A stretch of 57,075 bases of DNA, the filler included, from Sphacelaria rigidula (lineage: Eukaryota), in assembly GCA_964200075.2 (NCBI GenBank). It is 8 parts of 8 records of this genome, joined end to end, with 100 filler letters (N's around TTAATTAATTAA, not from the genome) between each part and the next. Parts side by side here need not be neighbours in the genome. Positions count along the whole stretch, not along the records: positions 50,030 to 57,075 come from CAXNAA020016774.1; 7 more parts are not named here. One strand, given 5' to 3'. The notes beneath the pieces are model-generated. The model had not been told where the DNA came from. It made no database searches and saw nothing but the letters and a program-made list of their open reading frames with translations. The first letter of the stretch is position 1. Each line of letters begins with the position of its first letter. Made by a program: the position numbers and the translations under genes. Of this stretch, positions 7,637 to 57,075 are shown piece by piece.

Positions 7637-7753
7637 CCACCCCCCGAAGCTCATCTTCAGCAGTTCCCGCTACTGGCGAAAGGTCCGATGTATCCTCTCG
7701 AGCGCCCGCTGCCCCGCTCGTCGCCTGTCTCGCGGCTTGGTCTGACGAACAAG

Positions 7754-8420: not shown

Positions 8421-8775
8421 GCCGGTTGCCCCGGTCGCTCAGTCGGTGACCTTCAAAGCTTCTGACGGTTGGGTCGTGGGTTCGAATCTTGGCGCGATCT
8501 GGGATTTTGTTTATCATGCCCAATAGTGGAGAGCGACCATGTCGTGAGTACACAAAATTCGTCTTTACGGTCGACGAAGGAAAGGGACTGCTGGACCTCT
8601 CTCGCGATAAAAAAGAAAGACAAGTACCGCCTAAGGCAGGTGGAGTACCACAACGAAACAAACAACATAAAACTCCCGTGTTCACCTTCCTGTGTGATCC
8701 CGGCTGGTGCGCCCACATGAACCGAAACGTGTAGACCGGCGTGCAGAATAGATGGGACGACGACACAACAACACA
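8421..8775 (+). mobile_element. Full-length tRNA-derived SINE
   Basis: Head has an A-box (TCGCTCAGTCGG) and B-box (GGTTCGAATC), followed by a conserved body, a structured 3' region and an (ACA)n tail. Seven other copies are in the window. Confidence 0.85.
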
Positions 8776-20700: not shown

Positions 20701-21523
20701 GAAGGACAAAACTTGAGAGGAAAAAAGATGCAAACGTAGCGCACCGCGCGTGCCCTGATCAAGAAGGACCGGCTTGCGCTAGAATGCGACACGATTTGGC
20801 AACATTGTTTCTCTGAGTCACAGGATCGCTGCCTGCAGCACGGCTTGCTGCGGGACCGTTTGAAATCTGGTTCCCTTCCCCGCCTAACGTGCTCATGTCC
20901 CCGCCGTCGCTGCCAATACTTGAGCTGCACTGCTGACTGCTGCTCCTACCTTTCGAGTTGTGTATGACCTTTGAGTCTACGAGCGTTTCGCGCGCGTTAT
21001 CAATGAACTCCCAAAGTGACTGCTCGAGTATTTACAAATGCATGATAAATACTGATCGGAGGACGAACCACTGTGATCAACGAACGCTATGGAGGATGTT
21101 ACATGTCCGGAGAGACAAGGAATCAACTGGAAGGGAAACCGGGGTCGGCTATGCTCTCATGCTCACTGATTGAGTCTGGCAAGTGACATTGGCAGCCAGC
21201 TTTCAAACTGTGCATATATTCATCGTCCCCCCCACCTCATCATGATAGGTGGGTAGATATTCCCCCCAGTGAGGCAGTGTAAAAGCCGTGGCTGTCTCTG
21301 GAAGTGGCGATACCACAGAACAGAGCAACTCATTGTAGGCTNNNNNNNNNNNNNNNNNNNNNNNNNNNNNNNNNNNNNNNNNNNNTTAATTAATTAANNN
21401 NNNNNNNNNNNNNNNNNNNNNNNNNNNNNNNNNNNNNNNNNGAGTCAGTCTGGGATATAGGTCGGCGATCTTGGGGGCAGCTGGGGGGGTGCCGTCGGGC
21501 TTGTGGTGGGCGGCGGGGGGGGG

Positions 21524-21740
21524 CGTACTCATTTGTTGCTGGCCTTAGTCGTTCGACCATTGATCACGCATCCCTTCCGAGACGGAGCACCATTCCTACT
21601 CCTACTAGGGAGACCTCCAACATTTAAGCGCCCATTACGCTTCTCCCACACAGAGAACTTTTGCATATCTTGTCCCCATCTTCTTTCGCCGTTTGTGGCC
21701 ACCACATCCACCATATATCTCCTAGTATAGCCACTTTCGT
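21524..21740 (-). mobile_element. LINE family A 5'-truncated copy in an ISWI intron, G-runs on both sides
   Basis: Homologous to 7420-7636; flanked by G-runs 21515-21523 and 21743-21756. Confidence 0.8.
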
Positions 21741-21765
21741 CAGGGGGGGGGGGGGGTTGACTCAC

Positions 21766-24700
21766 CATGGAGGCGATCAGTGGCAGCTTGCTTTTATTCC
21801 TCCCGTATGTCCCGAGGCCTTCCACGAATTTGGTGTAGTCGGGTCGTATCCAGTCGCCGAAACCCTCAGCTATGAGGTCCACCCTTTCCTTCACCTCGTC
21901 CTCGGGCAGCAGCATCACAGAAAGCTCCTCGATTGTTTCCGGGATCTCCGCTTTAGTGTCCTGAGCGGTGATGTGAAGTAGTAGCAACAGTGCGTGCGTG
22001 CGTGCGGGCGGGCGAGCATGCGTTTTTTGTTCATTAGTATTGTTTCTTATTCATCAATCACGGCGAAAAAAATCGGTTGGCGGAAAAAACATGGAAACAC
22101 TCATATACCCAAAGCATCATGAAAAAATATTTGCATGCAATTGAAAAAAAACATACGATGCGGATAGATATTCATATACATACCAGTACACATCATGTGG
22201 ATGTATTCACCTAAACCGTTTTCTTGTCGGTAATCTGCAAGCTCTTTTTTTTGCTCCCGACACGAACATCGATTTCAAAAAGGGGTACTTCTACGTGCAC
22301 TGGCAAAAATAAAAACAACGACCACCACCGCCACCACCACTACAATGACGACCACAATGGACCATGACCGTGACAATAGATCACAGCGAAAATAACACCA
22401 ATACCAACGAGGAAACAAAAATACGGTCTCGCCGAATTCCATCAAGGAAAAAAAAGGGAACACCTTCAGCTCCTTGAACTCGTCTTGCAGCTTCTCCTGA
22501 AGGTAAACGATCCTCTCGCGATCGAACAGGTGGTAATCCCTCATCACCGGCGCTTCCAGCTCCTTGGGCAATTTCACCGCGATTTTCTTCGGCTCTGGTG
22601 GTGTATGTCAAGCATCATGTTCAATTTTTCATTCATTTCTCGCACGTAGATAAACGCACGTTGTACGTTGAGGATATGCCATGTACAACAACACAACGCA
22701 GGAATCTTGCAAGGCGTATGCATTTACGCGTATACATACGTACGCACGCAAGCACGTGCGTATGTATGTTCGGACGTATTCATTTATGAATGTACGTATG
22801 TGCGTACGTACGTACGTACACATGTACTACTTGAATACACACGTGCGTATTATACGCGTATTATACACGTATGCACGCGAATATTTCCATGTATCCAATC
22901 AAACACCTCCTCATCATTCAACCGTCCATCTAGACAAGGCAAAGGTTAAAGACGTACGTAGAGGATCACTTCATTCATGCGAGACAGCCAAGCAAACCAG
23001 TCAACCTGATCAACCATCATACGCGCAACGACATATTTTAGTACAATACTATCATGACCAACACTCGTTTGTTGTGTCGCACTGTTATGTTCGTATGCAT
23101 GACATGCACGTTGTACAAACAAAAGCAGTACACATACCGACAATAAAAATCACTCACTCGTCTTTGGAAGTGCGGAACGAGGAACGACTGTTCATCAATC
23201 CCACAGCGCATCGTGTCCGCGCCATGCACGGTGCATCGAGAAGTAAAAGCAGTACGCACGTACATGGATGCACACGCAAAAAACAAATGAAGAACAAACA
23301 AAAATGGACGACGGGGGCGGGGGTAAGGGGAATAGGAGACAAGGGGTACAAGGAAGGAGAGTAGCAGAGTCAGCCAAGTTGGCGGGGGGAGAAAAGAGAA
23401 AATAGCAAACGAATATGTGGACCATGATGACGGGGGGGGGGGGGGGGGGGGGAATGTGGTCGACGTGCAACTTGTCAACAGTGCAAGAACGACACTATAT
23501 TTTGACTACACAGTAGTCCACAATTGGAGAGCGTAAATTATGACAGGAGGTAGGGAGGGAGGTGGTATCCTTCGTCACCGCGAGCACTTTGCTGCTTCGG
23601 GATCTCATGGGCAGTGTTGTCATAACCCACGCATCTTCCCCGTTGGCTTACTCAACAATCACTACGGTTTCGAAATGTCATGGACAAATAATAATGACAC
23701 ATTGCCTGTTGGGCATGACCCGAAATTTTTCAATGAACGAGATACGGCCGTATCAAAAGCAACAACACTCCTCCTGCGGCGGCGGACTGGCTGCCTACCT
23801 CCGGGCGCTGTGTGTCCATACTTTAGTTATAAAATCTGGGTTCGTTTGGGTATGTATATAAGAGTAGAGCGGAGCACACACAGATTGATAGTCGTAAGAT
23901 AAGTCCGAGATAGAGAAATCTTTGTCTCTTCTTCGGGATCACACAGCTACTATAGCAAGTTGATGGTCGTGGGGCATGACCTCTCGCGGTTCACATCTCG
24001 GGGATGGGATTTTCAGACAGCTATTATAGCAAGTTGATGGCCGTGGGAAATGACCTCTTGCTGCTGCCATCTAGGGGATCGGACTTTCCTCCAGGACCAG
24101 ACAGCCATTATAGCAAGTTGATGGTCACGGGACATGACCTCTCGCGGATACTATTTAACGGACCAAATTTTCCTTCGAGACCAGTCAGCTATTACAGCAC
24201 GTTTATGGTCATGGGGCATGACCTCTCGTGGATGTTAACTCGGGGACCGGACCTCGAATACGGAACCATAGGAACGTCAGGAACATGCTCTCCGCGAAAG
24301 TACCGAAACAAATAGATGAAAAAAAAAGAACAGACGACAGCAGACCTTACACATCGTTCAGCTGAAAAGTAACATCTTACCTTCGAACAGTGGAGAACTG
24401 AAGTATATATCACAGTAAGTCATTCGACAAAAGCTAACCGTCAGAAGTACAACGACAAGTGAAACGACAAGTACAACCACCACCGCCACAAAGGTGATCT
24501 GTATCGCAGATCTGTTCACTCCCCTCTCTCTTGTCTGCTATCGCGTTGTTCCTGGCGTATTATTTTCTCCATTAATACATTTTCTGTAAAGTGAGGAGAC
24601 GTTTTCTTCTTCTCTTCTCTACGGCCCATTTTTGTTTTTTTTCGGCAGCTCTATTCTCACCGACGCGTGGAGCGGGCGGTTGGTACGCCAACACCGCCGC

Positions 24701-26755: not shown

Positions 26756-27861
26756 TTCCATCACAATTTTCCTTGACGCTCGTCTACACCTTCCAGTGCG
26801 TGTAGGTGTACCAACCGCGGTCATACAGAAGGAAGGTCACACAGGAGCTGCGTATTTTTCATGGTTTCCCCCCCCTCCTTTCGCGATGCGAGGTCAATGG
26901 TCTGATGACTGTGGCATGTATGATCATGAATAAACACCCTCGTTCAGCGGTGCTTCCCTTAATTTTTATCGCGAGAAGGATTTGGCCGTCCGTTTTCCTC
27001 ATCGATGATTACATCGATTTTTCATCCATCATATGCTGTCCGCGTTTCATTTGGAGGAGGGGGTGCACTGATGATCTTTCATGCCATAGTCATGAGACCT
27101 CCTCGATCTCGCATCTGTACGAAGCCGGGACGGAGCACGTCGGGTTTTCACCGGCAAGTCACCAAGCGCGAAGCGCCGTGATGTGTTCGGCGAGTCACAT
27201 GAATGGTGAGCTGCATCCTGCAGCCAAGATTGTTCGACTCGAAGCGTACTGATTATCTTGCATATGGTTCACAGACTGCAATGAGATGCTTCATTTTCTG
27301 GTATCGCCGCGTCCAGACGCAGCCATGGCTTACGCCCTGCCTCGTGCGTGTCGCACACGTGAAGGGGGGCGCGACGACAACAACGACGATGATAGCGACA
27401 TCCTTTCAAGCACGTATATACTTGTAAACAGCCGTCAACACAACACGATGTAACTCAGATATACCTGATGGCTGCGAGCATCTCATCCTTCTCTAGCTTC
27501 TTCTCCCCCTGCAGCATGCCCCTCTGGACCACCATTGCATCGAGCTTAAGCTTTTGCTGCGCGCGCTCCACAACCTTCTCTTCGATGGTGTCTTCCGTCA
27601 CTAGTCTGTAAACCTTAACGAAGACAAGAAAAAAAGTAATAGAAACGAAAAACGTATGCAACAAAAAAGCATGTAATCAGAACAAAAAACAAAAAAAATC
27701 AACATGATGCTACTTTACGCAAACGTACGTTATCCTCACGGAAAAGCATGCACAGTACAGTACATACGCTGTTATGCAGTGTATTCAGCCCATGCTGAAC
27801 TCACCTTAACCGTCTTGGTCTGACCAATCCGATGGCATCGGTCTTGCGCTTGCAGGTCCGC
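21766..27861 (-). CDS. ISWI: ISWI-type SNF2 chromatin-remodeling ATPase (partial: end of HELICc through HAND/SANT)
   Basis: Six phase-compatible GT-AG exons: 27861-27805 (ADLQAQDRCHRIGQ, motif VI), 27613-27465 (VYRLVTEDTIEEKVVERAQQKLKLDAMVVQRG), 25171-25000 (FGADAVF...DEDLDAVLERG), 24790-24661 (FIDIGPRERK), 22594-22464 and 21960-21766 (EGFGDW...F...YGR, SANT). Confidence 0.92.
23943..24268. repeat. 84-bp minisatellite (4 units) with a conserved 44-bp half containing GGTCATG-NNN-CATGACC
   Basis: Units start at 23943, 24017, 24101 and 24185; lies inside an ISWI intron. Confidence 0.88.
25904..26174. mobile_element. IR-bounded element with telomere-like repeats; related adjacent copy 26216-26561
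   Basis: IR TATAACCTACCCACGGTTGA / TCAACCATGGGTAGGTTGTA. The internal block TGCACCCC..GCCC..GGGTTCT...TTGGGTT..GGTT(T)AGG is shared with 26444-26499. Confidence 0.6.
26737..27010 (-). mobile_element. Degenerate SINE copy interrupted by a LINE family B 3' fragment (26886-26934)
   Basis: The SINE body resumes after the insert. Degenerate duplicated flanks: ccccctcctttcgcg / caccctcgttcagcg. Confidence 0.65.
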
Positions 27862-28314
27862 CTGTTTTTTTGCGTCATTTTCCAACACACGCACACACGT
27901 GAGTAACGAAAATAATGATTAAAAACACCTGCGCTCTGTGACATATGAACATGATTCGATAGAATAAGCCTGCTCGACTCAAGGACCCAACACGCGTCTT
28001 TCGCTTCTCGAACTGAGCAAAAACACTGTCAAGTATGGCCTACGAGTAAGCGTATACCAGGAGCACAGGACTGCACTTACATTCCCTATTTCATCCTCGA
28101 CGACTTCCACTGAACCAGTGCGTGACATCTAACGCACATTCAGCCCATTTCCAAGCTTGACGCCGAAGACCACCCCCCCCCCCCCCCCCCCCCCCCCCCC
28201 CACCCCCCCCACCACCACCACCCCCCCACGCCCCCCCCCCTCCCCCATCAACACACGGACGCACGCATCTCGTACCCCGCCCCAGCACACAAACACAAAC
28301 ACAGGGGTGAGAAA

Positions 28315-28475
28315 GGTGCCTCATCTCGAAAGGGATGCGTGGTCAAGGGTCAAATGACTACGGTAAACAAAAACTGAGTATCCCCCCCCCACCCCACGAG
28401 TGCCACGAGTGCTCCGTCTCGAAAGGGATGCGTGGTCAATGGTCAAACGACTAAGGCAAACAACACATGAGAACG
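28315..28475 (+). mobile_element. Two stacked LINE family A 3' fragments, each followed by a C-run
   Basis: 28315-28380 with C-run 28382-28390; 28409-28475 with C-run 28476-28488. Confidence 0.8.
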
Positions 28476-28649
28476 CCCCCCCCCCCCCNNNNNNNNNNNN
28501 NNNNNNNNNNNNNNNNNNNNNNNNNNNNNNNNTTAATTAATTAANNNNNNNNNNNNNNNNNNNNNNNNNNNNNNNNNNNNNNNNNNNNCTCCAGTCGACT
28601 ATAGCAGAAACGCTGCCCCGTCCCTGCTGGCGGGGGGGGGGGGGGGGGG

Positions 28650-31600
28650 GGGGCGCGCTTCGTGTCCGAAACTTTTCTCTCGACGAACCCTCGGTATTGT
28701 GCGCAGATTCTCGAGGTCTGGGCATCTCAAAATAACGCGGATTGTTGGTGTCTTCAACACAGCTGCGCAGTATTCTCAAGTATTATCTCTACACTTAATG
28801 CAACACCGCTGAATCAGTCCCAAAATGTCGCTGAATCCCGTGGCTTCCTAACGTGCCGCTCGAATTCTCGCTGCATTCTGGGTGTGCCGATTTTGCATCA
28901 CGATACTGTCGAGGATTGGGAATTTGAGCCTTTTGGTAGTAGGAGTAGTAGAGGTTGCGCCGGGGTTGCATCCGAGACGTCTCCGAATTGGTGGATGATG
29001 CGAATCTTCCCGGCGTTCCCTCCGAAATGCAGCTTCATTGGCTAAAATCAGTACATGGATACAGGATGTATGTTCCAGTTTCATTTCTCGCAGCAAGCTC
29101 ACCATAATCAAAGTTTGATCTTTTTCTCGAGTGTCGCCCCTTCGTTGATTCCCCAGCGATCCAGTCGTGGTCACATAATGAAATGATCTTGTTCAGCCAT
29201 TTTCTGAATGGTGTTCGATGGGCAAGGTGCTAGAGCAAAGCAGTACAGTAGCAGAGTTGGTGCTGGGACAAAACAAATGAAGAACGTCCGTCAATCCGTC
29301 GCCTGCTACCATATTTTCAAGAACATCAAGCAAATGCTGAGGTATTCTCGGAAGTGGCGTGCCAGTCCCCACGACAGAGGAGGATCGGAACCGTACCTCA
29401 CACAAGGCCGCACTAAGAGAGAATTGTTACGTTGTCTGCCGTTGCATGTTCGGTTGGGCTATACCTCCATCATTGTACCTCAACAAACATCTTTGCACGC
29501 AAGATACACCGATCAGCTAGGTGGACACTGTTGTACTGTGCTGTCTGCGTGGCGCCGATGGACACCAGCCATCATGCCAACAACAGCACGACAACCAGCT
29601 ACAGGATAACTGCTGCAATACTCCACAAGAGGGAAAAATTCCTAACGCGCATACAATCTTTCGCCCGGTTCCCATGTTTTGCTCGGGCACCGTGACACAA
29701 CGCACTGGACAGAGCGAAATGCAACACTGGTGAATCATATCCAAACAAATAGCGCGGGCACCGCCCGCAAGACAGGCAGACGCAGCTGTTCAGAAAGCAC
29801 TGGGTGGGACAAGGAGCGGGCTGCGGATGTCATTCATAAAGTGGTTTCTCATGCGGCAGATGCTGCCCGTGCCTGCTGCATTATTTTTTTTTTTGCACGT
29901 AGCCGCAGTACAGTGTCATCAGTACCGTCGTAACGGTCATGATTACACAGGGCCGCGCGCCTGTGTGTGTGTGCATCTGTTGTCACCCCATCGTTTCAGG
30001 ACGACAGCCTCCACTTTTCGGTATATGTGGGCGAATCAGCCGCGGTCATACAGGAGGAACTTAAAACGCAGGATTTTTTTTCTTATTTTTTCGTTTGTAT
30101 TAGCATTCCACCGTTCCTCTACGGCACTTGCCCGATTTTATTATCGCGAGAAGCGTCCAGCGGTTCTCTTCCTTATGGTCGAATTTTTTTGTATCCACGG
30201 CGCAGTCGCTCTCCCCTATTGGGCATGATGTGAGGGGAAATCCCAGATCGTGCGACTTCACCGAGATTTGAACTCGCGTCCCACTCGTAAGAAGGGTTCA
30301 AGGTTACTAACTGAACCACCGGGAAAACCGACTGGCGGAGAAGGCACTATACTGCACCGTATCGCAGCTACTTGTACGTACTACGCACGAAAGCACCGCC
30401 GGGAGTTGTACAACTTTCGCCACGTGCCGCATTAAAGTGCACGTAGCTATAACGAGAATATACACCGCTTTTGAGAGAGTTTCGGAAAAACTTGGACATT
30501 TTTTTCAGGTTCAGGACGCAAGAACTCAAGGATGGGGGCTTTGAAAAACTTCAGGACGTAGACTGGCGTGACGCGGCTTGACGTTACTTCATCGTTCGCA
30601 GCGACTGGCCACAGGTTGCCCCACTTAATGTGAGGTCAACAATCCGATTTGAATAATGCGTAGGCCAGCACAGCCTTGAATAGATAGTGCATCAGAGTTG
30701 TACCGTACCCTACCGTGCCGTACCGTACCGTACCGTACCGTACCGCAATGTGCCGACGGCACGGTACATACAGTACGGCAGTACTTCCATACAACAGACA
30801 TAGCGGCATCGCAACAATTTCCGCAACATGACACCCACAACAGAGGTGGAAGACACTATGATGTCTGACAAAACGGCGATGCGGCCAAGTTTCTGGGCGA
30901 TAGACTACGAATTGTTTACACCGTCTTCTTCCAGCTGAGGCTGGCGATAGCTAGGCGCTGCACCCAAGGTAACGTCTTGAGCGCACCGAGCATCTAAAAT
31001 TCACGCAACACAACCAAGTGAACGCTGATAACATGGCACCGGTAGGGAGATCCCCTGTCTGTGGTGTCAAGGGTGGCTACTTCGTGAAGGGTCCGTGGTG
31101 ATGAGAATGAAAGTTGTGATGAATGTCCCACTTTGCTTGTGAGGGTACATTGATTGTGAACTGGCTGTGATAGTGGTGGTGGGAGCGGTGGTGATTTCTC
31201 TTCGTTCCATCCTGAGTTCTGAAAGGCACTCAAGACTTCAGGATGGACGGCTAAAAGTTGGGCTTCGATCCTGAAAAGTTTATCCTGATTTTTTCTTCAG
31301 GACAAGGGGGCCCACATAAGAATATCACGGCACTACGGTCTCTCCCCTCCCTCCCTCCCAAGGGGTCGAGAATAAGGAAATGACCACATGAGCAGTGCAA
31401 AAATCTTATGTTTCCCGTTTCTCATATACGGAAGTAAACGATCACTCGCATCACCTAGCGTCCGCCTCGACGTGAGCAGCCCCAAACCGAGGAGTTTGGG
31501 TGGATCAGTTGTTCTTGTGGCCGTAGGGGAGCAAATTTGCCGGCTGGATAATGACTTTTGAGTCGCGGTGAAAGCTGCATAATGAGTATTGAATCGCGCT

Positions 31601-35140: not shown

Positions 35141-35399
35141 GATCTGAGCGAAAATTTATCATCTCGATGCAGTTCGGTCTGGATGGATTTTCAAGCTTTC
35201 GATAAAAAAAATACGGTGAAAGCGTGAAACGGCACACGGTCACTCGTGTACAGTACAGACAGGCTGTACTGTCTGCAGTGCTTCCAAGCAGGGTGTGTTG
35301 AGTGCGTGTGTGTGTTTCGTGCAGGAAGATATAAAGGAGAAGCAGGCAACGTGCAGTGCAGACAGCCTGGGACTATCATTTCTCTCTGCTTACAATGTG

Positions 35400-35635
35400 C
35401 TGTTGTTGTGTTGCCGTCCCATTTATTCTGGCGCCAAACTACACCTTTCGGTATATGTGGGCGCATCAGCCGGGGTCACACAGGAGAAAGGTCAACACAG
35501 GAGCTTTTTATTTTTTATTGTTTCTAGTACCCCACGTTCCTTCTGTGGTGCTTGCCTTTATTTTTCATCGCGAGAGGGGTTCAGCAGTCCCTTTCTCTCG
35601 TCAACCTTTGAGTCGAATTTTGTGTACCCACGACA
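35400..35635 (-). mobile_element. SINE, 3' two-thirds (cut by contig end)
   Basis: Aligns with the SINE body and tail. Confidence 0.8.
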
Positions 35636-35735
35636 NNNNNNNNNNNNNNNNNNNNNNNNNNNNNNNNNNNNNNNNNNNNTTAATTAATTAANNNNNNNNN
35701 NNNNNNNNNNNNNNNNNNNNNNNNNNNNNNNNNNN

Positions 35736-35790
35736 GTAGGGATGCGAGGTCAATGGTCTTATGACTATAGCATGCATGATCATGAGTACA
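35736..35790 (+). mobile_element. LINE-like family B 3' end abutting C8 run; other copies 44166-44224 and 26886-26934
   Basis: GGGATGCGAGGTCAATGGTCTTATGACTATAGCATGCATGATCATGAGTACA + C-run; collinear with the family A end. Confidence 0.7.
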
Positions 35791-35862
35791 CCCCCCCCGA
35801 CTGGCGTCTCGCACGCTCTCGTCGTTGGGCACCCGGAGGGTCACTCACATACAACACAGGTG

Positions 35863-35956: not shown

Positions 35957-37574
35957 CACAGGTGATGTCGAGTAAAATCAACGATGAATAACACCGCCCA
36001 AGTTCAAATTGGATACATCTGTTGTTTTCGCCGCAGCAGCGTTCTTGCTGGCATGTGTTTGACAGAGAAAAGTAGTGGCGGTGACGGGAGCATTGCCCTA
36101 TTTTTCAACGACATGTTTTTCAGCGCATAGAGGCGCGTCCTGTCCACAAAGAGAGGCAGAGAGAAATCGATCTTCGCATTGGTGAGCTCGTCAGGCAAGA
36201 AGAGACGAAATCTGTCCGCAGATCGATGTTCTTGCACATGGAAAGTTGGGTATGTGCTGGTAACATCGATGATGCCAGTCTCTCGAGCGATTGGTAATCG
36301 CCAAGCGTGGACACTAAAAAACACGGGCGAGGAGCTTCCTCTCTGCCGTTGCTTCTCTATCCGGTAATGTATATAGTCATCGACACGCGTGTACACCGCA
36401 TTCATTCGGTGCACCTAGCCACAACTGATTCCTCGCTGCAGAGTTCCGGGGGGAGATATGGGTTTGCTCTATGTAACTGTGTCGCGTGATCCCTGCAAAA
36501 ACGATATGCCACTTGAACCTCATTTTTCATATGGACCCCATTTTTCAGGATCCGTTGTTAGATGTTGCGCCTAGTGAAGATAAAAATGGTGGGTCAAAAT
36601 TTCAGCGCCCAACTCTTCGAATTACCCACAGCATCGCCACAACACATTCAAAAATCATTGTCGGCTGGCCCAGCCTGTATGGGTTTTGGGAAGCAGCTTT
36701 GCCCCCAAAGTCCGCAGCAAAAATACCGTTTTGATTTTCCCTCGGTTTAGTCTTTTTAGCACAGCAGCATATGCAGAAAGAAGTAGTGTTGAACACAACT
36801 TGACATGGACAGCGAGTAGCACGAACAACGTAAAACAAACGTGACGTGTATCCGGCGTGCACGGAAGTTCAGGGCAGGAGAAGGGAGCAAGCATGCGATA
36901 CAGCAGCAGGAGACGTTTTTTTTCATACTTTTCGGTTTCTCTGATTTCGGCGGTGACAGATTGTCGAAAATCTAGGTGTATCCGGTTTCATACGCTGCTA
37001 GATTTTCACACAGTCGTACAGAGTCGTATCACCACTTTCGGGAAACGTCGGACAGTGTTTCCCAAGGTCGGCCTGCCGAGCAGTGTGTGCCCCGTTGTGC
37101 TTGATCGTGTTGAAGAATTGGTAGGTGCATGGCGAGTGACACTCAAAGCCATGCCGAGAGCAGAAAGCGGCGCGGATCTGCTGTAATCGCCCTCAAAAGC
37201 CGGCGAAGGAAAGCATCTCACCAGGTCAGGGCGCACCATCGACAGTAGTAGTAGACTACATCAATAGAAGTGTATGTACAGTGTAGGAGCGGAAAGATTG
37301 TTGCTGCGGTACGAGGTACACGTTTTTTCCGATGTAGGCTGTTGCCCAGGGTGTCCCATTGTCACGGCCGTGACCTCGGGAGTTGCTCAAGCCTCAAAAA
37401 GTACTCAGCAAACTTGATATGCAGCCGCATGTCTCTGCAGGTGCTTTGAGGGTCCAAAACCAATCACTCGCCGCTGTCTTGATACACTAGGGTTTCACGT
37501 TGTACGCAATGATCGCTGTTTGTGTCAAGTTGTGCCCACCATTATTTCTGCATTCCTTCCTCATATGCCGCTAT

Positions 37575-37675
37575 CGTGTGTTGTCGTCGTCCCTTCTATT
37601 CTAGGCGCCGGACTACACCTTTCGCTGTATGTGGGCGTACCAGCCGGGGTCACACAGGAGGAAGGTCAACCAGGG
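37575..37675 (-). mobile_element. SINE 3' fragment
   Basis: Aligns with the SINE tail; abruptly interrupted at ~37678. Confidence 0.7.
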
Positions 37676-42376: not shown

Positions 42377-42899
42377 CCTCTCGGCTGGCACATTTTGATT
42401 GCGGTCTGCAGCACACACTATTGACTGTAGCTGCAAACCCAAGATTTTCCTCTTCTTTATCTTATTTCCCTCACAATAGATTGAAAAATCAGCTAAGCCC
42501 GTCAATCACGGAGTACACATACGACCGTTCAATGTACGCATTTATATTAATACATACGTACGCGTATCACCCATCTCTCACTGTAAAATGTAAACTATGG
42601 CTCACTACTCAAGCTCTACCTAATGCTTAAAGCAATGCTGGAGAGGACCACACCCGCTGAAAGGTGTACGATCTGTAGTGGTCGATGTCCAGCTTCGACA
42701 CATGTTGTTGTTTGACCTCGCTTCTGTTAAGGAATACGGTAGTCGTGGAAACCGTTGTACTCCTCTTGGCAGGTGACTGCAGNNNNNNNNNNNNNNNNNN
42801 NNNNNNNNNNNNNNNNNNNNNNNNNNTTAATTAATTAANNNNNNNNNNNNNNNNNNNNNNNNNNNNNNNNNNNNNNNNNNNNGCGGCCGTCGGCGAGGC

Positions 42900-43045
42900 C
42901 GTACTCATTTGTTGCTTACCTTAGTCGTTTGACCATTGACCACGCATCCCTTTCGAGACGGAGCACCATTCCTACCCCTAATAGAGACACCTCCGACCTT
43001 CCGGCGCTCATGACGTCTCTCCCATACAATGCACAACCTTTTTTC
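42900..43045 (-). mobile_element. LINE family A 5'-truncated copy
   Basis: Homologous to 7490-7636, with a G-rich run at its 5' junction (43047-43066). There is no C-run at its 3' end. Confidence 0.8.
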
Positions 43046-43159
43046 TGGGGGGGGGCGGGGAGGGGGATACGAATTTGGGACTGGCGATGGCCCCTGGGAA
43101 AATCCATCTCACGGATTCCATTCTTGACACCTAATTTCGCATTTCGAAGTATATCTCAC

Positions 43160-43280: not shown

Positions 43281-43441
43281 AAAGCAGAAGCAAAAGCAGA
43301 AGCAAAAGCAGAAGCAAAAGCAGAAGCAAAAGCAACAGCAAAAGCATAAGCAAGGGTAAGGACGCAAGCCCAAGAAATACTTGATGAACAAGAAAAGGCG
43401 AGTTGACAAGTAGGCAACCAAGCAGGATGAATCGGACTACG

Positions 43442-43487: not shown

Positions 43488-44415
43488 GAGAAGAAAACAG
43501 CGAAAAATGAAGAAGCAAGCAGCGACAGCAAGCAGGTGAGGGCATACGAAAAAATGAGAGAGAATCGCATTGCACAGGGTAAATGGCAGTCATAAGAGAT
43601 ATCAATGTTAACAGGATAGCCCCCTCTCGACAACCCGCTGTTTAGGAAGCAGAACATGCTGCTGTACCGCCGAGGTTGATGCAGGATGTAACGGATTGCT
43701 GCCTTGTGTGTGTGCATGTTACAACTACGCAAAGCGCACGACGGTCCGAAAAGGCAATATCACTACGATAGATCGGTGGGTGGGTTGATAATCACACGTG
43801 AAGTCATCCTCCATGAACCCAGCCACGGTCACAAGATACAGGTGTGCACACAATGTGAATACGGTGCATGGAAACGTTACTCAATGACAAGAGAGGTGGG
43901 GGGGGGGGGGGGGGGGGGGGGGCAAGGGGTCTTACTGACGGGGCAATTTGTTTCAGGTTTTCCATCATTTATTTTTTTGACGAGCTGGATTTTTTTCTCC
44001 GACTTGTCCCAAAAAAAAATGAATACTTTCCCGACCGACGCGAGATTTTAGGCGAAAGCTGTACCGTAGTTAGTCGTAAATTGATCTCATATCTGACTCG
44101 GTGGAAGCCAAATGGAAGATAATTAGTAGGCTTCGGGCCGAACAATTTCAGCAGGGTNNNNNNNNCTTTGTAGGGATGCGAGGTCAATGGTCTTACGACT
44201 ATGGCATGCATGATCATGAGTACACCCCCCAACCCCCCAAAACAACGGCACGGGACCCATACATGAGGATGGTTTTGTGGTGAAAGAAACTATTTGCGCG
44301 AAGCGCGATCATGGCTGAGCGTTCAAGATCGGCACCCGGCAGACTCTGAGGACCCGTCTAAAACCAGCCGAAGAACTAAAACATGGAAAATGTCCTGTTT
44401 CACTGTACTACAGCA

Positions 44416-44765
44416 GCCGGTCGCCCCGGTGGCTCAGTTGATAACCTCGAACCTTCCTGACGGTTGGGTCGTAGGTTCAAATCTCGGAGTGATCCAGGAT
44501 TTTTTCTCACACCATGGCCAACAGTGGAGAGCTACCTTGTTGTGGGTACACAAAATTCGTCTTAATGGTCGACGAGGAAACGGGACTGCTGAACCCCTCT
44601 CGCGATAAAAAATAAAAAGGCAAGCACTGCAGATGGAAGGCAGCGTACTAAAAACAAAAAACAATAAAAGCTCCTGTGTTGACCTTCCTCCTGTGTGACC
44701 CCGGCTGGCGCGCCCACATATACTGAAAGGCGTAGACCGGCGCCCAGAATAGATGGGACAACAAC
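44416..44765 (+). mobile_element. Full-length tRNA-derived SINE with 9-bp TSD
   Basis: A-box TGGCTCAGTTGA and B-box GGTTCAAATC; ACTACAGCA at 44407-44415 and 44766-44774. Confidence 0.9.
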
Positions 44766-45230
44766 ACTACAGCACACACACACGCACGTCCGCTCTCATG
44801 TGCTGTAGTTGTCACTGTTTTGTGGTGTGATTAGACCTTGCGAAAACGGTTTCGTCTCCGCTAAAATTGCCTGAGCTGCTGAATGGTTATGTCCGTCTTT
44901 CTGTAACATCTAGTACCAGTCGGGACGCAGTGCAGTCCACACACTTGACTGTTGAAAACTTCATGGTACCCAGACCCATCGCTTGCGCCATACCGAACAT
45001 GGCTGGGTAAAGGCAAAAACTAGCGCCGGTATACACCGCTGGATCGGCTGGGCCAGACCTACTGCTCCGATGAAAGGAGCAATCCACAGCATAGTGCGGA
45101 TACACTGCACCCCCAGGGTACTGCTTGCTCGCACTGTGCACCCGTCAGCATGGCGTCTGCTGGCGCTGGCAGCGGTACCAGCGCTCGCGGTCATGAAAAA
45201 ACACAACAAGCCATACGAAGATGGGGATAC

Positions 45231-45944: not shown

Positions 45945-46222
45945 ATTCGACTACAATATATATATATATCCCAATATATGAGCGTAGTTCCAAAACAACC
46001 GCAAAACTGTCCACAAATAAAATGGTAATACAGCGCATGATAGGTGGCTCTAGACTGCACGAAACGCTTCGTACAGGTGACATTGGCGAAAACGATCCCA
46101 TAGGTGCGAGCATCCAGTTGCTCGGTGTGCTCAGCCTTTGTCACTTCGATTCGGGTGTAGATTGTGCCTCCTCACACCAGCCACTTTTTTTTTCGGGGGG
46201 AGGGGGGGAAGGGCGATCGTGG
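45945..46222. mobile_element. Diverged inverted copy of the 55285-55538 MITE
   Basis: Internal similarity (GACATTGGCGAAAA..., CAGCGC.TGAT) and G-run end. Confidence 0.55.
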
Positions 46223-48886: not shown

Positions 48887-51142
48887 TATATGGTCAATAG
48901 ATGCAATAGACAAGAAATGTACCGAGTACAGTATGGACCTATTGCAACTATCGACGGCCGACAATAGTGGCGAGAGGTTTATACTTTACCCAAGGAATGT
49001 ACTGCGTACAGTATGAAGTATTTTTGTCTCTCGCAACAGGCGCAATAGTCGATACTGTACGCTGTACACTTTTTGATCGTGTATTCTTTTGTCCAGGGTA
49101 TGATATCTTCGATGGATCAAATCGCTTGATTGATTGGTCATCCTCCATTATTATTACCAGTTGCTGAGCGGAGCCGCTCCGTGCCAGCTACGAATACAGC
49201 CTCGGTCGGATGGTAGTAATGGGCGTACCCCATTGACACGCAAAACGCTCGTGGAATGGAACTCGACTACTGTACGGATAAATACATCACAAGAACAGCG
49301 CGGAAAAAGTGTCGGGGACAATGTAATAAGAGTTTGAAGAAAAGTGTCACGCATAGTGTGGCACTTGAAAAAAATGTTGGAAAATACAGGAAACAAAAAA
49401 ATCAGCAGTAGCAAAGGGAAAGAGACGCCAACTGTACTACAACCAGCAGCTAAACTCCGGGACGATGCCTCCCCTTTTTATGTTTGAGCCTTTGGAACGT
49501 GGATAATGACCTGGCAGATAGACTACAAACGAGCGGAAGGTCACTCCCAAGTTTTGAAGAAATAACAATTATGAACGCAAAAAAAATCGTGTTCAACAGC
49601 ATATATGTCTCGGCATGCTGTAAAAAGTAACGAAATCCTCGAAGGGAAAAAATGGCTTCAAGCGTAGGAGAGATTGACAAGAAAGGGGTATGGTACAAAC
49701 TGCCGTCTGGGACACTGAGCTAGCTGGCGCCGTGTAGCTGTATCTTGATGAAACAAAAAACTGTAGAACGTTGTGCACGTCGCACAGCTCATTGGCTACA
49801 TGAAGCAGCCGAGGGAAGAGGAGTGCGGGTTACAATTGCAGTTGAAAAAAGAATCTGACTAGAGGGGGAAATGCGAGACGTGAACAAAGGTGGCATGAAA
49901 TCGTTCTATGCACTAGACAGTAGGGAGAANNNNNNNNNNNNNNNNNNNNNNNNNNNNNNNNNNNNNNNNNNNNTTAATTAATTAANNNNNNNNNNNNNNN
50001 NNNNNNNNNNNNNNNNNNNNNNNNNNNNNTTTTATGGCGCCATCGCCAACCGCCGCCAACCCCATCGGGGGTCCGCCCCTACAAAGCCGGGACGGAGCAC
50101 GCCGGGTTCTCGCCGGACCAGGCTAAAGAAACAGGGAGGGGGGGGGGGGTGCAAAAGATGGTCGAGAGGTGGACACACTCGTCGCTCACTGTGACACGTA
50201 TTCAGGGTACTTGGACATGTGAAACGTCGTTCAGATCGACATTCTCCTCCCACTTATCGGTCTGTACATCCGTTCATGTACAGCTCTACCCATTTGCTCA
50301 ACGATAATGCAAAATATTGACAAGAGTAGGGGACTCTTCTAGTGTGCAGGGGAACCCAAGTGCTGTGATGCTTGGAAACATTAACAACATATCGGCGGAT
50401 TGAATGTTCGATTGCTGGCAGTCTACCAGATATTCATTCGTTTCATTGTTTTCCGAATGTTTTCGGAAGAATCGTACGTGATACCTTCGGCATAATTATT
50501 GACCGTGTGCGGTACGGAGAGTAAGCGAGTATGGCTCATCATGCCGAATAAACGATGGGCGTTCCAAAATGCTGATGAGTGGATTTTTCATTTTGTTGCC
50601 TTTTTTACTCAACAGAAACTCCTAGCTGGGCCGCGTTCCCGGTGCACCAGTCAGATAGACAATACTTACGATACGGCGGCGGGCGGGGGGGGGGGGGGGG
50701 GGCGCTTCCTCCGATAGAGGGACATTAATCATTTGTCAATAAAATGTCCCATGAAACTCGTCCAAGGCACTCGTGCTTTCTTATGCATCCCGTTCATACA
50801 AGTGCTGTCCCTCCTTCACGAGTTGAGGTGAACCAACTGTTACAGACACACGAAGCCGGAGCAGCTACAGTGCACGCGTCTCGAAATACAATAATGGTAC
50901 AACAATTCACACATCCAACATATTAACAACAACATGTCAAGAACCGCACGCATATTATGCTTGCACAGTTCGCACAAATTTCCCTTCCCTACCTCAAGTG
51001 CCGTCAAACACACCGTCAAGTCTGCATCCCGTGGGCCTCGAGGTAATCTCGTTTCACACGCAAACTCCGGTTCTTCCGTCTCTATTGGGATAATATGCTA
51101 TTTGTGTGTGTTGGCGTTTGATTCCACGGTTTGAACAAAGTA

Positions 51143-54100
51143 GAGCAAAGAAAGCGAGGGAAAGTGCCCAGGCTCGGCGCCATCTGCTCGCTCAGCTACG
51201 GGCCCACAACATGGTGATGAGGATATGGCGCAGGAGACAGGGAAGAGCACAACTACAGGTGTGGCGGGAAACAACCTGCGTGATCTTTGGCGTTGCCGAA
51301 GCGACAGCAGAGACTGCATATCTGCTTTTGCATCACAAATTTCGAGAACCATGGATGCGTGATCTCACGAAGTTCCTCGGCGATGGCGAGTGGAGGAGCC
51401 CCAAACCCTGAAACGCCCGATACACAATTGCAATAAGCACTAGCCACGCTTGACCTCAACGGGAACGGAAGTCGTCGGTCAACCGATGGGGTGATTGAAA
51501 ACATTCCCGTGGCTAAAAAAACAGTCCCGTGACGAATGTACAAACAAGAGAGAACGGCAGTTCCTTTTTTTCGTCGGTAATGTACCCTACTGGCAACCGC
51601 CCGCACGCGTCCCCTCTCCTAGAAATTACCTCTGAAGGCATAGAGGACAGAGCAGGACAGTGTGGGAGAAAACCCGAAAACGTTGGCCCTGTAAACTGCA
51701 TTTTCAGGGGGGTAGGCTTCCGCACAGCCGGAGCACCGCAAAAGGTAGAGAGCGGCCGGGGGAGGGTAAAAAAAGAACCGAGGGCGGGAACGAGTTGAGA
51801 TCGAGTAAAAAAGACGAGGCCGGCGGGGGGAAGGGGGGGGTAGGGTATCTTTTGGCATGTTTTGGAGAACCCCATTTGTTTTCTTTTGGTTCCCCTACAA
51901 AATGTTATTTTCTATTTTCAGGATCCCCTGTTTGTTCACTGTTTGTGAGATGTATATACCGGCATTGGGCTCGAACTTCCAAATGGAAAAAACGAGTGTC
52001 GGATTTTTTACTGTGAGGAACACTCGTTGAAGAAGAAACCAAATCGCGAAAAAGAGTTCGCGTCGGCATCATCATCAAAAAGGTTAAAAATGGGCACTCA
52101 GTTGATGACAAAAGGGGTACAGTAGATAATGCACAAGAGAATCACCTTATCGATAACGTGATGCGGGTACGGGAGATTCTACGGTAGGTGACTGAGGCTG
52201 CACACTAAGGCCGGAATGTTTGTCACCGACAGGCTCCTAAATAAAGTGCCGATACTTGAAACAAAACAAAATGTGCACCCCTACTGTAGAACCACTCTTA
52301 CCCGGCCGATCTTCTGTCCAGATTACGGAACACTCGACACTTTGTACGATAGCCCCCCCACAAAAAATGGTCAACGGTCAAACGACTAAGGCCAGCAGAA
52401 AATGAGCACGCCCCCCCCCCTCAGAAAAAAAAGTGACCGGTTTCGGGACGCAAAATCTACACGTAAATTGAAATGGAGAAAGCCGAGAACAAGGAGCAGC
52501 CGGAAATTCTCACGCTTGAGTTCGTTTTCGCCAATGTCGCCTATATGAGGCGCTTCATTCAGCCTGAAACTAGACATGAGGCGCTGTATGGCCATTTTCT
52601 TCGTGGCAGTTTTGGGCTGTTTTGTTTTTTGGGGGGGGGGATATCGTAGAAAGTCTCACTCTTGGTTTCCTGTCTCCCGTCGGGAGAACTAGTACATTCT
52701 GTCACTCTCGCACCCCCACCTTCATCATCGTACCATCCCTGCGTGTAGGATGACAATACTACAAAGGTTCGGGGTTCCACGCAACACCGGAGTCGCTGGA
52801 TCACCCTCCCCGCGTGCGCGGTTAGCAGCAAAGACATGGGTGTAGCGTAAGGAGACTCGAGAAGTCAGTATTTTGCCACGTTTGGAAGGGTCGCGCCGAT
52901 CGACCTTCCTGTGGTTGGCCTCCGAGCGGCTTGTATTCTCGTACTGTAAACTCGGTGAGATGGAACTAGGGCGAGGATACATGTTCAAAACTTGACGGAT
53001 ATGTATAGTATATATACATATATACATATATATATATATATCACCCCTTAAGCGACACCTTTGCAGAAAACAACCTCAATGAAAGGCTCCGTTGTGTTAA
53101 AAAAATGTTGGAATTATTTCTGAAAAACCTTGAGCTTTCCGTCAGTTCCTCTCTGTTCGTGACATCCGAACAGAAGTCAAATTATTTATAGGTTCATGAC
53201 CCATACTTTGGCTCCCCCTGCCATATTTCCACATTCCATCTCAACGTAGCACAACAGCACTCCAAAACGCGCCAGGATTATCATGAGCTCCCTCAAAAAG
53301 CAGCAAGCATCGCATGTACAGTGCTATGCAGCCGAGGTGCGTGCTCGCGGTACAAGGGTCATGGGGGCACCAAAATGCACGAAACACGCACAAGTATGCA
53401 AGGGTGGGGCGAATTCATGATTCGTCTAGAAATTACTTGATTTTAGTGTAGTTGATTCGTACCGTACGAATCAATTCTCAAGTTTTGTTTTCAGCGTTGC
53501 AACCCAGATAGGCGCGTCCCAGGGACGCGGATGGCACGAAAATTGCGCAAAGACCTTCTTGACCAGCGGTCAACTTTTTTCTGTCTTTCGAGCAATCACG
53601 CCGGGAAAATCGTAGATTTGGTCATTCGAACCGGCGATGACTCGTCCACATCGTGCGAGTGTTGGTTTTCGGAGGCGCACACCGAAGTGTTTCTGCGGTA
53701 GATTTGATTGATTTTGATTTTGATTTTGATTTTGATTTGAATTTTAATGTTATTATTATTTTTATCTTTAATTTTATCTTTGTTTTTATTGATTGATTGT
53801 GGCACTTTAACCGATGCCCCAGGGGTCATGATCCAGCCGTGGTCACGTGATAAACGTACAATAAATACTCAAGACAAAACAAGACTGAAACTCTCGCTGC
53901 AAAATAAGCGGAAACACCGGGAAAAATGTAGAACAGAACACCGTCATAGGTAGGGGTGCACGTTTTTTATTTATTTTTCTGAGGCTGTGCAGTTTCGGAT
54001 CCTTTCGATGATCAAGATCTGGGCTTTTAGTGTGCAGCCCTCAGAAAACGTTTGGACTCAGATGGGCATCCCTGCCGTGGAATCACCCATTACGCCAAGT

Positions 54101-55122
54101 CGAAAACACAGAAACTCTGCATGGGAGTCGTGGCAAGGCGGGGGAGCACAAATATTTTCTGGGCCGGCGTACTGGAGTTGGAGTATAGACTCTCGCGCAG
54201 TCGCACTATGGTTTAGTCAGCTAGGACGAAGTTTCGTCCGAGCGTGAGCCGATCCTCTCCTCGCAGCCGAACTCCACAAAATCGTAAAAAGTGTTCATTG
54301 CTTTGTTTCTCAAACGTTCAAGTACGTACCCCCAGCATGTTTTTGCCCCCAAAAGTGCAGCCCTAACGGAACATGACCCATGATGGCCCCGGGAAAAGCA
54401 ACGTACCAGTTTTCTCAAGAGACAAGAAGAAAGAAAAGAACCTTGAACAAAAACCATCTACTTGTACGAACAGCGTGCGACAACGACAGAAGTCGGGAAG
54501 CATAGCGCGCTTCCTCACCACGCAAAACGCCCCCCGGCAAGAGTCATGCCACGGTGGGTTCGTACAAAAGATTTTCCCAAGGTTAAATTGTCAGGAGCCC
54601 GCCGTCTTATCCCAAAAAATCAACTCGTGAAACATGTGAGAGTGCGCAGCGATCAGTATTCCAATGATCTAGGGATGATATTTCCAAAGGACATTTAAAC
54701 AGGAAGATCCTGATCCCATATTCTTGTGTGGCTTCGTAGTTGAGGAGCCCATCGATGAGAAGCATCTAGGCGCGAATGTGCAACCCCTATTGTGACATGA
54801 CTCGTCAGAAGAAATGGACGGAAGCATAACTACCAGATGCGGAAGGGTGCAAAGCCACCTCAAGAGTGTTCAACCATTTTTTTTCTCCTCTTACCATCGA
54901 CTTTGGCGTCCTTAATCAGATGGATGCACAGTTACTTTATGCCCCTCTGAAAACAAAAACACTCTATGAAATCGGACTGGGAACGCGTCGGCGTTTTTGT
55001 TTATCGTGCATGCATGCAAGCAGGCGCTGCAAATGTTGAAGGATGAGAGGGCTAACGCGACGGTGCGTATACAAAAGATCTGGAGAGCAGCCATCGCGAG
55101 GAGCACCGCTACGCGACTCAGG
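51143..55122 (+). CDS. Possible IQ-motif protein, scattered small exons
   Basis: Exon-like segments ~51143-51258 (VMRIWRRRQGR), ~53874-53950 and ~55024-55122 (ATVRIQKIWRAAIAR) have plausible splice sites. The model is incomplete. Confidence 0.3.
52335..52658. mobile_element. MITE carrying a LINE family A fragment (52368-52410) inserted in the C-run of its left TIR
   Basis: Collinear with the empty copy 55285-55538 except for the insert and a duplicated C-run/A-run. Confidence 0.8.
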
Positions 55123-55284
55123 AGGTCTGTTCATGCTGTTTCATCCGATCAAGAGGAACCGAAGCGGTGGTACATGAGAGGAAAATTTCACAACACCCCC
55201 GTGTTATCACGAAATAATTGACTGCTGCGCGTTAACTGATCCCCGAGGAACCTAGACATGGAAATTATCCACAAGGTAGACGTA

Positions 55285-55538
55285 CGACACTTTCTACGAT
55301 AGCCCCCCCCAAAAGTGCCTGGTTTGGAGAGGCAAAATGTTCACGAAAATCGAAGTGGAAAAAGCCGAGCACAACGAGCAGCTGGGAATTCTCACGCCTC
55401 GGTTTTTTCTCGCCAATGTCGCCCATATATGAGGCGGTTCATGCAGCCTGGGCCCAAACATCAGGCGCTGTATGTCCATTTTTTTCGTGATATTTTTGGG
55501 CTCGTTTTTTTGGGGGGGGGCTATCGTAGAAAGTGTCG
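55285..55538. mobile_element. MITE with perfect TIR CGACACTTTCTACGATAGCCCCCCCC
   Basis: 26-bp perfect TIRs seen directly. Confidence 0.88.
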
Positions 55539-55809
55539 CAGTACCTAACGTAAACAAGAGGAGGTCATTCGCTGAAGAAAACTGAAGAAAACTGAAGGGT
55601 CGCGCAGACAAACGGCTAAAAGGGAAGACACTCACAAGCGAGCAAGCAAGCACTAGACAAAGAAAGAAAAAAAATGATCGACCTATGCAACATGGCTTCA
55701 GGTGGAGAAGGTCTTGTGCAAAAAAAGCAGATGCACTCACATTCAAACGAAGACAGAAAAGCCGTGGGAACAGATTGTGGCTCAGCAATTTCGATCACAC
55801 TATACTATA

Positions 55810-56021
55810 AATTCGACTTAACGGCCAACGAGGGAAAGGGGCTGCTGTACCCCTCTCGCGATAAAAAATGAAGGCAAGCACCGCAGAAGGAAGGTGGAGT
55901 ACTAAGAACAAATAAAAAGGAAAAGTTCCTGCGTTGACCTTCCTCCTGTGTGACCCCGGCTGGTGCGCCCACATGTACCGAAAGGTGTAGCCCAGCGTCC
56001 AGAATAGATTGGACGACAACA
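55810..56021 (+). mobile_element. 5'-truncated SINE copy
   Basis: Aligns with the SINE body and tail. Confidence 0.8.
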
Positions 56022-56910
56022 CTGCAGGTATGGATGGACTCTCACCCACAACACTGAAGCTCAAATCTCGGTGACGGGGGGGGAGGTACTGTTCCAAATT
56101 CCATTGTTGGGCTACCATGCGTAGTCAAACCTCCATAAATGAGGTTGGTTGACGTGTTGAGACTATAACATGTCGCTGGGCTCGGAGCAGGTGTGCACGA
56201 TGTTTTCGAGAGATCGGCACGAGTTGATCTCGAGTCAGAATAACCGGCCCGACGTGGTAAGTAAGAAAAATGTTGTAGTAAGGAAGCTGAGTGTTGGAAA
56301 TACTCGCAGACCATCTTGCATCCTGACGTACGGGTGTGGAGAAAATGATCGATTCATCTCACGAGTTATCTATGTACGTTGATTGATTTCAGCAGCTAGG
56401 GCAGGTGCTTGCAGAGGCCTCAGTAGGGTTGCTAATGCGGTTCCCCGCCAGTATGTGGCATGATTCGCAGTTTGATGCCTCGCTTCCGTAGGGGTCATGG
56501 GTGAGAGCTCATACCCAAAAATAGTGTGGAAGATATAGATAAACCTCAATCTGCCCCCACGACATTTTTTTTCTTTCTTCTCAATTGGGTATGAACGCGT
56601 GTGCTGTTGCGCAGGACTTTTTTTCCCACCTGAGGCTATGTTGAAAAACCGACCATTCTACTTTTTGTTTTGTTTCGTTTGTTTATTCGTTGTTGTTATT
56701 GCGACTGTTTGTGTACCTTCTTTTTTTTCTTTGAGTCTACTCTTTGTGTCTGTTCCACCATTCTGTTTTTTTCTCACGTACGTCTCGTGTATCTTGTGGA
56801 TAATGACTACGACTGGATCATGACTATCCGCGGGATCACTTCATATGCGAAAATCAACCAATAATTAACCAATCAATCGGTTATAAAAGACCAATAGGGG
56901 GAGGGGGTGG

Positions 56911-56977
56911 CGTACTCATTTGTTGCTTGCCTCAGTCGTTTGACCATTGACCACGCATCCCTTTTCAGACGGAGCAC
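56911..56977 (-). mobile_element. LINE family A fragment with ~22-bp TSD, inserted at the C-run tailing a family C fragment
   Basis: AAAAGACCAATAGGGGGAGGGGG (56885-56907) and AAAAGGCCAATAGGGGAGGGGG (56978-56999) flank it. Confidence 0.85.
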
Positions 56978-57007
56978 AAAAGGCCAATAGGGGAGGGGGG
57001 GGGGGGG

Positions 57008-57066
57008 TGTACTAAAGAGCATGCCTGCCTTGGTCATCAGACCGTTGACCCGGCATTCCCACAAAG
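57008..57066 (-). mobile_element. LINE-like family C 3' fragment between G-runs
   Basis: CTTTGTGGGAATGCCGGGTCAACGGTCTGATGACCAAGGCAGGCATGCTCTTTAGTACA + C-run; collinear with families A and B. Confidence 0.65.
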
Positions 57067-57075
57067 GTGGGGGGG

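Follow-up and report, generated by a model that had tools for sequence, protein, structure and literature searches.

Human L1 and Alu integrate at TTTT/AA, and in Xenopus the long interspersed nuclear element (LINE) Tx1L is inserted in the DNA transposon Tx1D. The families Kibi, Koshi, Waldo, Mino and Dong belong to the Tx1 and R1 clades. These LINEs, which carry an endonuclease of the apurinic/apyrimidinic type (APE), are microsatellite-specific with (TC)n, (TTC)n, (ACAY)n, (AC)n and (TAA)n as their respective targets, and the targets in the list given there are di- to tetranucleotides only (PMC3812793). Here, we describe a 43-bp LINE piece in a C-run within a terminal inverted repeat (TIR) of a miniature inverted-repeat transposable element (MITE), found in a stretch of 57,075 bases from Sphacelaria rigidula (assembly GCA_964200075.2) that was analysed as a whole and is called the window below.

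The closest described systems come from the curated library of transposable elements of Ectocarpus (PMC12477816, supplement 1). In its annotation notes, RTEX-1_Ec32 is listed with "single EN-RT ORF; (C)n 3'", i.e., one open reading frame (ORF) for endonuclease (EN) and reverse transcriptase (RT), and with a "C-rich" target site duplication (TSD), while RTEX-2_Ec32 is annotated with "(C)n termini/TSD". The non-autonomous RTEX-N1 and RTEX-N2 share their last 60-100 bp and "can be present in tandem". PMC12477816 gives these properties as annotation notes only, without filled/empty evidence; C-run targeting is not taken up in its main text, where the term "C-rich" has no hit. Among the texts covered by our literature search, no paper analysing C-homopolymer targeting by LINEs was found, and the only mention was the one in the supplement notes of PMC12477816. 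The landing in a C-run described here is an instance of a property which these notes already record for brown-algal RTE-X LINEs, and not a new one.

The filled site and its unfilled paralog

The left TIR of a MITE of ~252 bp contains a C8-C10 homopolymer, and a 5'-truncated LINE copy has most probably entered it by target-primed reverse transcription (TPRT), with duplication of the run and of bases downstream of it. The window is composed of eight samples of 7046-7047 bp each, separated by N44-TTAATTAATTAA-N44 spacers, and both the filled MITE copy (copy 1) and the "empty" paralog (copy 2) are located within one sample, 50030-57075. Parsed by regular expression, copy 1 (52348-52435) reads GATAG-C7-A-C-A6-(43 bp)-C10-TCAG-A8-GTG and the paralog (55298-55317) reads GATAG-C8-A4-GTG; the two sequences noted in the first-pass annotation were thus reproduced exactly. 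Both flanks of the insert in copy 1 share the same order of a C-run, one non-C base, a C and an A-run, where the paralog has a single C8-A4, and the insert is in sense orientation relative to the C-run. A diverged MITE copy at 46186-46208 reads C7-T-C6-G-A9-GTG, a near-match to the 3' flank of the insert. Because this diverged copy is so close to that flank, the target in copy 1 before the insertion probably resembled the present 3' flank.

The host element shows the features of a MITE: it has TIRs, is short (252 bp) and non-coding, and is present in several copies, two full ones and one fragment in the window. The inverted ends of copy 2 extend over 31 nt with 96.8% identity (55285-55314 vs 55508-55538), and copies 1 and 2 align at 81.2% over 229 bp. 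Allowing at most one mismatch, the TIR core motif has four occurrences in the window, one at each end of copies 1 and 2, and each intact TIR arm carries a single C8-C10 run just inside its outer 17 bases. The parse, the inverted ends and the alignment of the copies support the earlier statement that the fragment lies inside the C-run of a MITE TIR. That this run pre-existed and was duplicated with its downstream bases, as was also claimed, is likely: all three intact TIR arms have C8-C10, the flanks share the order given above, and an independent nested copy (described below) shows a TSD that comprises a C-run and 12 unique bases.

MITE copy 1 itself is surrounded by a possible 4-bp TSD, ACTC (52332-52335 and 52658-52661); the flanks of copy 2 are GTAC/GCAG vs ACTC/ACTC at copy 1. 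The summed contig depth, which is not a copy number, is ~1.8e5 to 3.3e5 on the MITE vs ~30 on unique sequence. We also observed that several contigs per run join 50124, where a second family of short repeats with such tails has its 5' boundary (region 50077-50124, minus strand), directly to the terminal base of the MITE, both as 50124 to 55286 and, on the opposite strand, as 50124 to 55537. A target preference of the MITE and a composite element are both possibilities for this exact adjacency.

The junctions were checked against reads by placing Logan contigs from four public runs (X1-X4) on the sample 50030-57075. The filled site is spanned by record 9 of X2 (50103-52566; 5 differences, 0 gaps), by record 2 of X1, which belongs to another study (50714-52566; 17 differences, 1 gap), and by record 27 of X4 (51676-52534; 10 differences, 1 gap), and record 18 of X3 ends within the insert, at 52397. 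The bridging contigs run from the unique left flank into the MITE body and represent three runs, three samples and two studies; those of X1 and X4 differ from the window at ~1% of the positions. Since contigs of three runs bridge the site, it is not a misassembly, a possibility raised in the first-pass annotation and not borne out here. Its presence in all three samples shows the insertion to be old and no recent polymorphism.

The parent LINE and its tails across the window

The designation as a LINE fragment holds as well, as the match of the 43 bp is to the outermost 3' end of a reading frame with Exo_endo_phos and RVT_1 domains. This similarity is not due to chance: in the window, the insert matches at least nine other places, all of which have the same end base and lead into a C-run; at least six of them match at 85-90% over 46-59 bp (E 1e-8 to 2e-13). 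Its match to the 3' end of the LINE on the metagenome locus L034 amounts to 90.7% over 54 bp (E 2.8e-14). This locus came out of a metagenome scan with a 16-mer of the tail, which yielded 104 loci with L034 as the only true relative; the other 103 are chance matches of the 16-mer and not relatives. No relative was found in viral contigs. The stretch 119-4399 (minus strand) of L034 encodes an ORF of 1426 aa (P0003) with an Exo_endo_phos domain (residues 235-461, E 6.7e-13), an RVT_1 domain (residues 807-1056, E 1.1e-30) and a Cys/His motif near the C-terminus. The best PDB match of its RT region is L1 ORF2p (E 2.9e-22). The TGA stop is separated by 5 nt from a C10 run downstream, and no other ORF of at least 80 aa is found on the same strand within 711 bp upstream.

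Like L034, a second relative, L105 (5259 bp), is near-full-length and carries a single ORF of ~1426 aa of the same architecture. Its protein shares 73% identity with P0003 over residues 1-1426, and the run after its end is C13. The L105 contig is filed under a metagenome-assembled genome (MAG) of an uncultured bacterium; it consists almost wholly of this eukaryotic LINE, and its first 200 bp contain a tandem repeat of ~60 bp. Probably, L105 is algal DNA that was binned into a bacterial MAG.

The Pfam scan of the window covered the nine ORFs of at least 200 aa and then 150 of the 163 ORFs of at least 90 aa, and no Pfam family, hence no RT, was found in either set; RT and endonuclease are known from L034 and L105. 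The longest LINE piece of the window (7148-7645) shows 85.7% DNA identity over 503 bp (blastn) and 77.6% identity over 161 aa (tblastn). Copies of 43, ~67, ~143, ~220 and at least 498 bp have the 3' end base in common and vary in their 5' truncation. Judged from its sequence, the insert derives from a very abundant APE-type LINE with a single ORF and is a dead-on-arrival copy, truncated at its 5' end. A consensus fold of 11 tail copies gave one weak hairpin of 7 pairs (-3.5 kcal/mol, 0 compensatory pairs) and thus no evidence of a conserved 3' structure, and an Rfam scan of the window returned 0 matches.

The junctions of the LINE tails in the window were scored by eye. At least five Cs follow the 3' end at once in 10 of the 12 tail copies where this end is visible, and a C-tract ends 0-13 nt upstream in 8 of the 9 copies whose 5' junction can be seen. 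Wherever a copy has such a run, it is C and never G on the sense strand of the LINE. This association of tails and C-runs is far beyond chance, because the background comprises only 70 runs of at least six on both strands (2 x 56,451 nt). The earlier claim of C-tract targeting, thin when a single paralog comparison is considered alone, is thus joined by other copies of the window with the same association. The most readable of them is the nested pair at 56885-57007, whose TSD of 26-30 bp starts in the C-run and extends through 12 unique bases (11 of 12 identical); a T interruption of the C-run is common to both TSD copies. TSD lengths vary, from these 26-30 bp over 15-22 bp at the filled MITE site to the C-run only at 21515-21756.

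A second tail family, ending with ...CATGATCATGAGTACA and Cn, shares the tail core of the LINE and differs from it in blocks. Loose ends of the read data at 50124 place its 5' boundary ~110 bp from the end. Probably, this family is a short non-autonomous partner comparable to RTEX-N2 of Ectocarpus.

Some further observations concern C-runs and the surroundings of LINE pieces. At 21743-21770 (minus strand), the 5' C14 of one LINE piece directly follows ...CCATGGTGAGTCAA, which resembles the end of an exon and then a GTGAGT donor site; an intron may begin where this copy is located. At 43283-43345 (minus strand), a microsatellite of hexamers, (GCTTCT/GCTTTT)n, is located upstream of another LINE piece. 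Long homopolymers without an adjacent LINE tail are C26 (18201-18226), C29 with a cluster (28173-28240), G21 (23432-23452), G22 (28632-28653), G25 (43898-43922) and G18 (50685-50702). C/G runs of at least six are ~3.5x as frequent as expected from the base composition, and A/T runs of at least six show an excess of ~5-6x. The positions of all features are compiled in Table 1.

Table 1. Positions of the features discussed, counted along the whole window.
Feature	Position	Strand	Remarks
Copy 1, left parts	GATAG 52348-52352; C7 52353-52359; A 52360; C 52361; A6 52362-52367		
Copy 1, insert and right parts	insert 52368-52410; C10 52411-52420; TCAG 52421-52424; A8 52425-52432; GTG 52433-52435		
Paralog, parts	GATAG 55298-55302; C8 55303-55310; A4 55311-55314; GTG 55315-55317		
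Putative 5' TSD copy, C7-A-C-A6	52353-52367	+	compared with 55303-55314
5'-truncated LINE copy, 43 bp	52368-52410	+	last 11 codons, TGA stop, 5 terminal bases
Putative 3' TSD copy, C10-TCAG-A8	52411-52432	+	may hold part of the element's own C-tail
MITE copy 1, filled	52336-52657	+	322 bp including the insertion; boundaries from read joints at the paralog
Left TIR of copy 1	52336-52359	+	17 outer bases and C7 run
Right TIR of copy 1	52631-52657	-	G10 run and outer bases, unoccupied
MITE copy 2, "empty" paralog	55286-55537	+	252 bp; both boundaries from read joints
TIR runs of copy 2	C8 55303-55310; G9 55512-55520		
Diverged MITE-like fragment	45991-46208	-	74% identity; without outer TIR bases
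Longest LINE piece of the window	7148-7645	+	3' 498 bp, last 161 aa; cut by sample start; ends GAGTACG and CCAC6
LINE 3' piece, ~220 bp	21515-21756	-	C14 at 5' side (21743-21756), C9 at 3' side (21515-21523)
LINE 3' piece, ~143 bp	42904-43055	-	C5-T-C4-G-C9 directly 5'; 3' flank without C-run (exception)
Two tandem tail copies	28311-28488	+	ends C9-A-C4, and C13 cut by sample end
Second-family tail copy	26868-26939	+	C8 directly 5'; only C3 on 3' side
Older tail copy of nested pair	57008-57066	-	followed by C13-T-C4 run
Nested LINE-tail copy, 67 bp	56911-56977	-	behind older tail copy
5' TSD copy of nested insertion	56978-57007	-	C13-T-C4 and TATTGGCCTTTT; also the C-run after the older tail copy
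3' TSD copy of nested insertion	56885-56910	-	interrupted C-run and TATTGGTCTTTT; T again before the last Cs of the run
Copies of second tail family	35736-35798, 44166-44238, 57008-57066, 26876-26936, 50030-50124		
Copies of dispersed repeat of up to ~360 bp	8419-8775, 35396-35635, 44414-44778, 55809-56027, 6928-7027, 37571-37674		
Spacers	7048-7147, 14195-14294, 21342-21441, 28489-28588, 35636-35735, 42783-42882, 49930-50029		apparent features across these are joining artefacts

Apart from the LINE and the MITE, the window contains a further dispersed repeat of up to ~360 bp with 80-87% identity between copies, which has a summed depth of ~6e5 to 8e5 in X1. An open frame of 501 aa (5084-6586, minus strand) has no Pfam family and two relatives only, both from Logan assemblies (100% and 82% identity).

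Proposed mechanism and alternative explanations

The ORF of the parent LINE has the order APE endonuclease, RT and C-terminal Cys/His motif. In the proposed mechanism, the endonuclease would nick the bottom strand where the G-run ends, and the exposed 3'-OH of this run would pair with a few 3'-terminal Cs of the LINE RNA and prime the cDNA. At the filled site, cDNA synthesis would have been aborted after 43 nt and the top strand cut ~15-22 nt downstream, which would turn the C-run and the A-run into a TSD; following the established TPRT model, the top-strand cut would generally lie 0-12 nt beyond the run. Each insertion would make two C-runs out of one. This fits the tandem tail copies (28311-28488, 56911-57066) as well as the contig joints from unit to unit, many of which link the 5' end of one unit to the G-run of the next (50124 to 56903-56912). 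One joint of X3, from 52613 to 56903, puts a LINE tail and C-run, in a further copy of the MITE, at the other arm and hints at recurrence at MITE TIRs. A wider reading, which we put forward tentatively and with more doubt than confidence, is that this LINE lineage is truly mononucleotide-(C)n-specific, that it duplicates its own target and so makes landing pads and head-to-tail arrays, and that the TIR C-runs of the abundant MITE act as a recurrent genome-wide sink, with the insertion landscape of one family of transposable elements being shaped by another.

Several points weigh against TPRT into a pre-existing C-run. The "empty" site is an 81%-identical paralog and not a pre-insertion allele, and no empty allele of the filled site is found among the contig joints listed for the four runs, a minority of all joints; all four runs have the filled form. 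At the site, the two TSD copies are unlike, with C7-A-C-A6 (15 nt) vs C10-TCAG-A8 (22 nt), and part of the 3' C10 could stem from a tail of the element itself. Elsewhere in the window, a proper 3' C-run is missing at 42904, where the flank is GC-rich, and at 26936, which has only C3, and the copy at 28311 is without a 5' C-tract. The contigs of L034 and L105 do not clearly include the 5' ends of these elements and no C-run is seen upstream, so that a TSD of a full-length copy is unreadable. Finally, we infer both the specificity of the endonuclease for a G/C run and the membership in RTE-X, the latter by analogy in architecture, termini and Ectocarpus homology.

The main rival takes up the possible origin of the 3' C10 as a templated or added tail of the element itself. 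The TSD would then consist of the A-run only (6-8 nt), TCAG would be untemplated filler, and the C-run of the TIR would lie beside the nick without being duplicated. Every copy, L034 and L105 included, ends in a C-run whatever its flank, and the A-run is clearly doubled (A6 and A8 vs A4), as this explanation has it. However, a C-run, one non-C base and a C are common to both sides of the insert, the nested pair duplicates the T interruption along with 12 unique bases, and the C-run abuts the 5' junction directly in the pieces at 21515-21756 and 42904-43055. The shared interruptions disfavour this rival, and we consider it unlikely. Considerably less probable still is the entry of the LINE piece into an ancestral MITE with subsequent spread by MITE transposition, by which filled vs empty would be a subfamily difference. 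The great abundance of the MITE family, as seen in its summed depth (~1.8e5 to 3.3e5 vs ~30), and the age of the insertion, found in all 3 samples, would suit such a history; against it, the contigs pass uniquely from single-copy flank through the insert, a depth of ~468,000 across 55302 falls on the uninterrupted form, and no further MITE copy carrying the insert is seen in the data.

The fragility of homopolymers and the very small size of the fragment speak for a capture of LINE cDNA, independently of the endonuclease, as filler at a homopolymer break, or for gene conversion or recombination between repeats. But the 3' end is complete to its last base, flanking duplications are present, and other copies show the same geometry, as TPRT predicts, which makes these routes very improbable. 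An assembly artefact joining repeats comes to mind in a region built of high-copy repeats and homopolymers, and it is hardly credible here: the site is bridged in three runs (3 samples, 2 studies), and the contigs of X1 and X4 are ~1% different from the window. Integration by TPRT into the C-run of the MITE TIR, with duplication of the run and downstream bases, is the reading we prefer.

The locus offers a readable case of site choice by an extremely abundant LINE of the brown-algal type, with filled and unfilled copies side by side and a nested copy with an unambiguous TSD. LINEs that target homopolymers and renew this target themselves might account for the many C/G runs in excess and for the arrays of tail units in tandem in such genomes. 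They would also be a simple system for how an APE-type endonuclease and pairing of the RNA 3' end set the choice of target. For annotation purposes, short C-flanked LINE tails inside other repeats should be seen as insertions and not as parts of those repeats.

Comparison with known systems

The present LINE agrees with L1 and Alu in 5' truncation and in variable TSDs, and it would also do so in TPRT and in the pairing of a homopolymer at the nick with a homopolymer tail of the RNA. Unlike them, it uses C/G and not A/T, has no 3' UTR (untranslated region) and has its stop 5 nt before the run. With Tx1L and Tx1D it shares the location of a LINE inside a family of DNA transposons with TIRs; in contrast to that pair, the MITE is struck via the generic C-run of its TIR, and there is no evidence that the MITE sequence is recognised.

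Kibi, Koshi, Waldo, Mino and Dong are likewise APE-type LINEs whose copies are embedded in a simple repeat that flanks them on either side (PMC3812793). The target here differs in being a mononucleotide C-run, and the element is dispersed with an enormous copy number.

Among the named homologs, those closest to P0003 are proteins of Ectocarpus sp., one with 55% identity over 80% of the query and another with 66% over 38%; one Ectocarpus homolog shares the C-terminal motif VVNGQ..ASNK of P0003 (...GQ.T.ASNK). A brown alga as the probable host follows from these homologs and fits the label "algae metagenome" of one run with the sequence. In architecture, the family matches RTEX-1_Ec32 and RTEX-2_Ec32, which also have a single EN-RT ORF, a (C)n 3' terminus and a C-rich TSD. 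The size class is 5.5-5.9 kb for these two and >5.0 kb in L034 and L105. The host genome is another one, and the Ec32 consensi were compared by annotation, not by sequence. As with RTEX-N1 and RTEX-N2, there are short partners that have the last 60-100 bp in common and can occur in tandem, and the tail region that the LINE has in common with its short partners suggests recognition of the 3' end.

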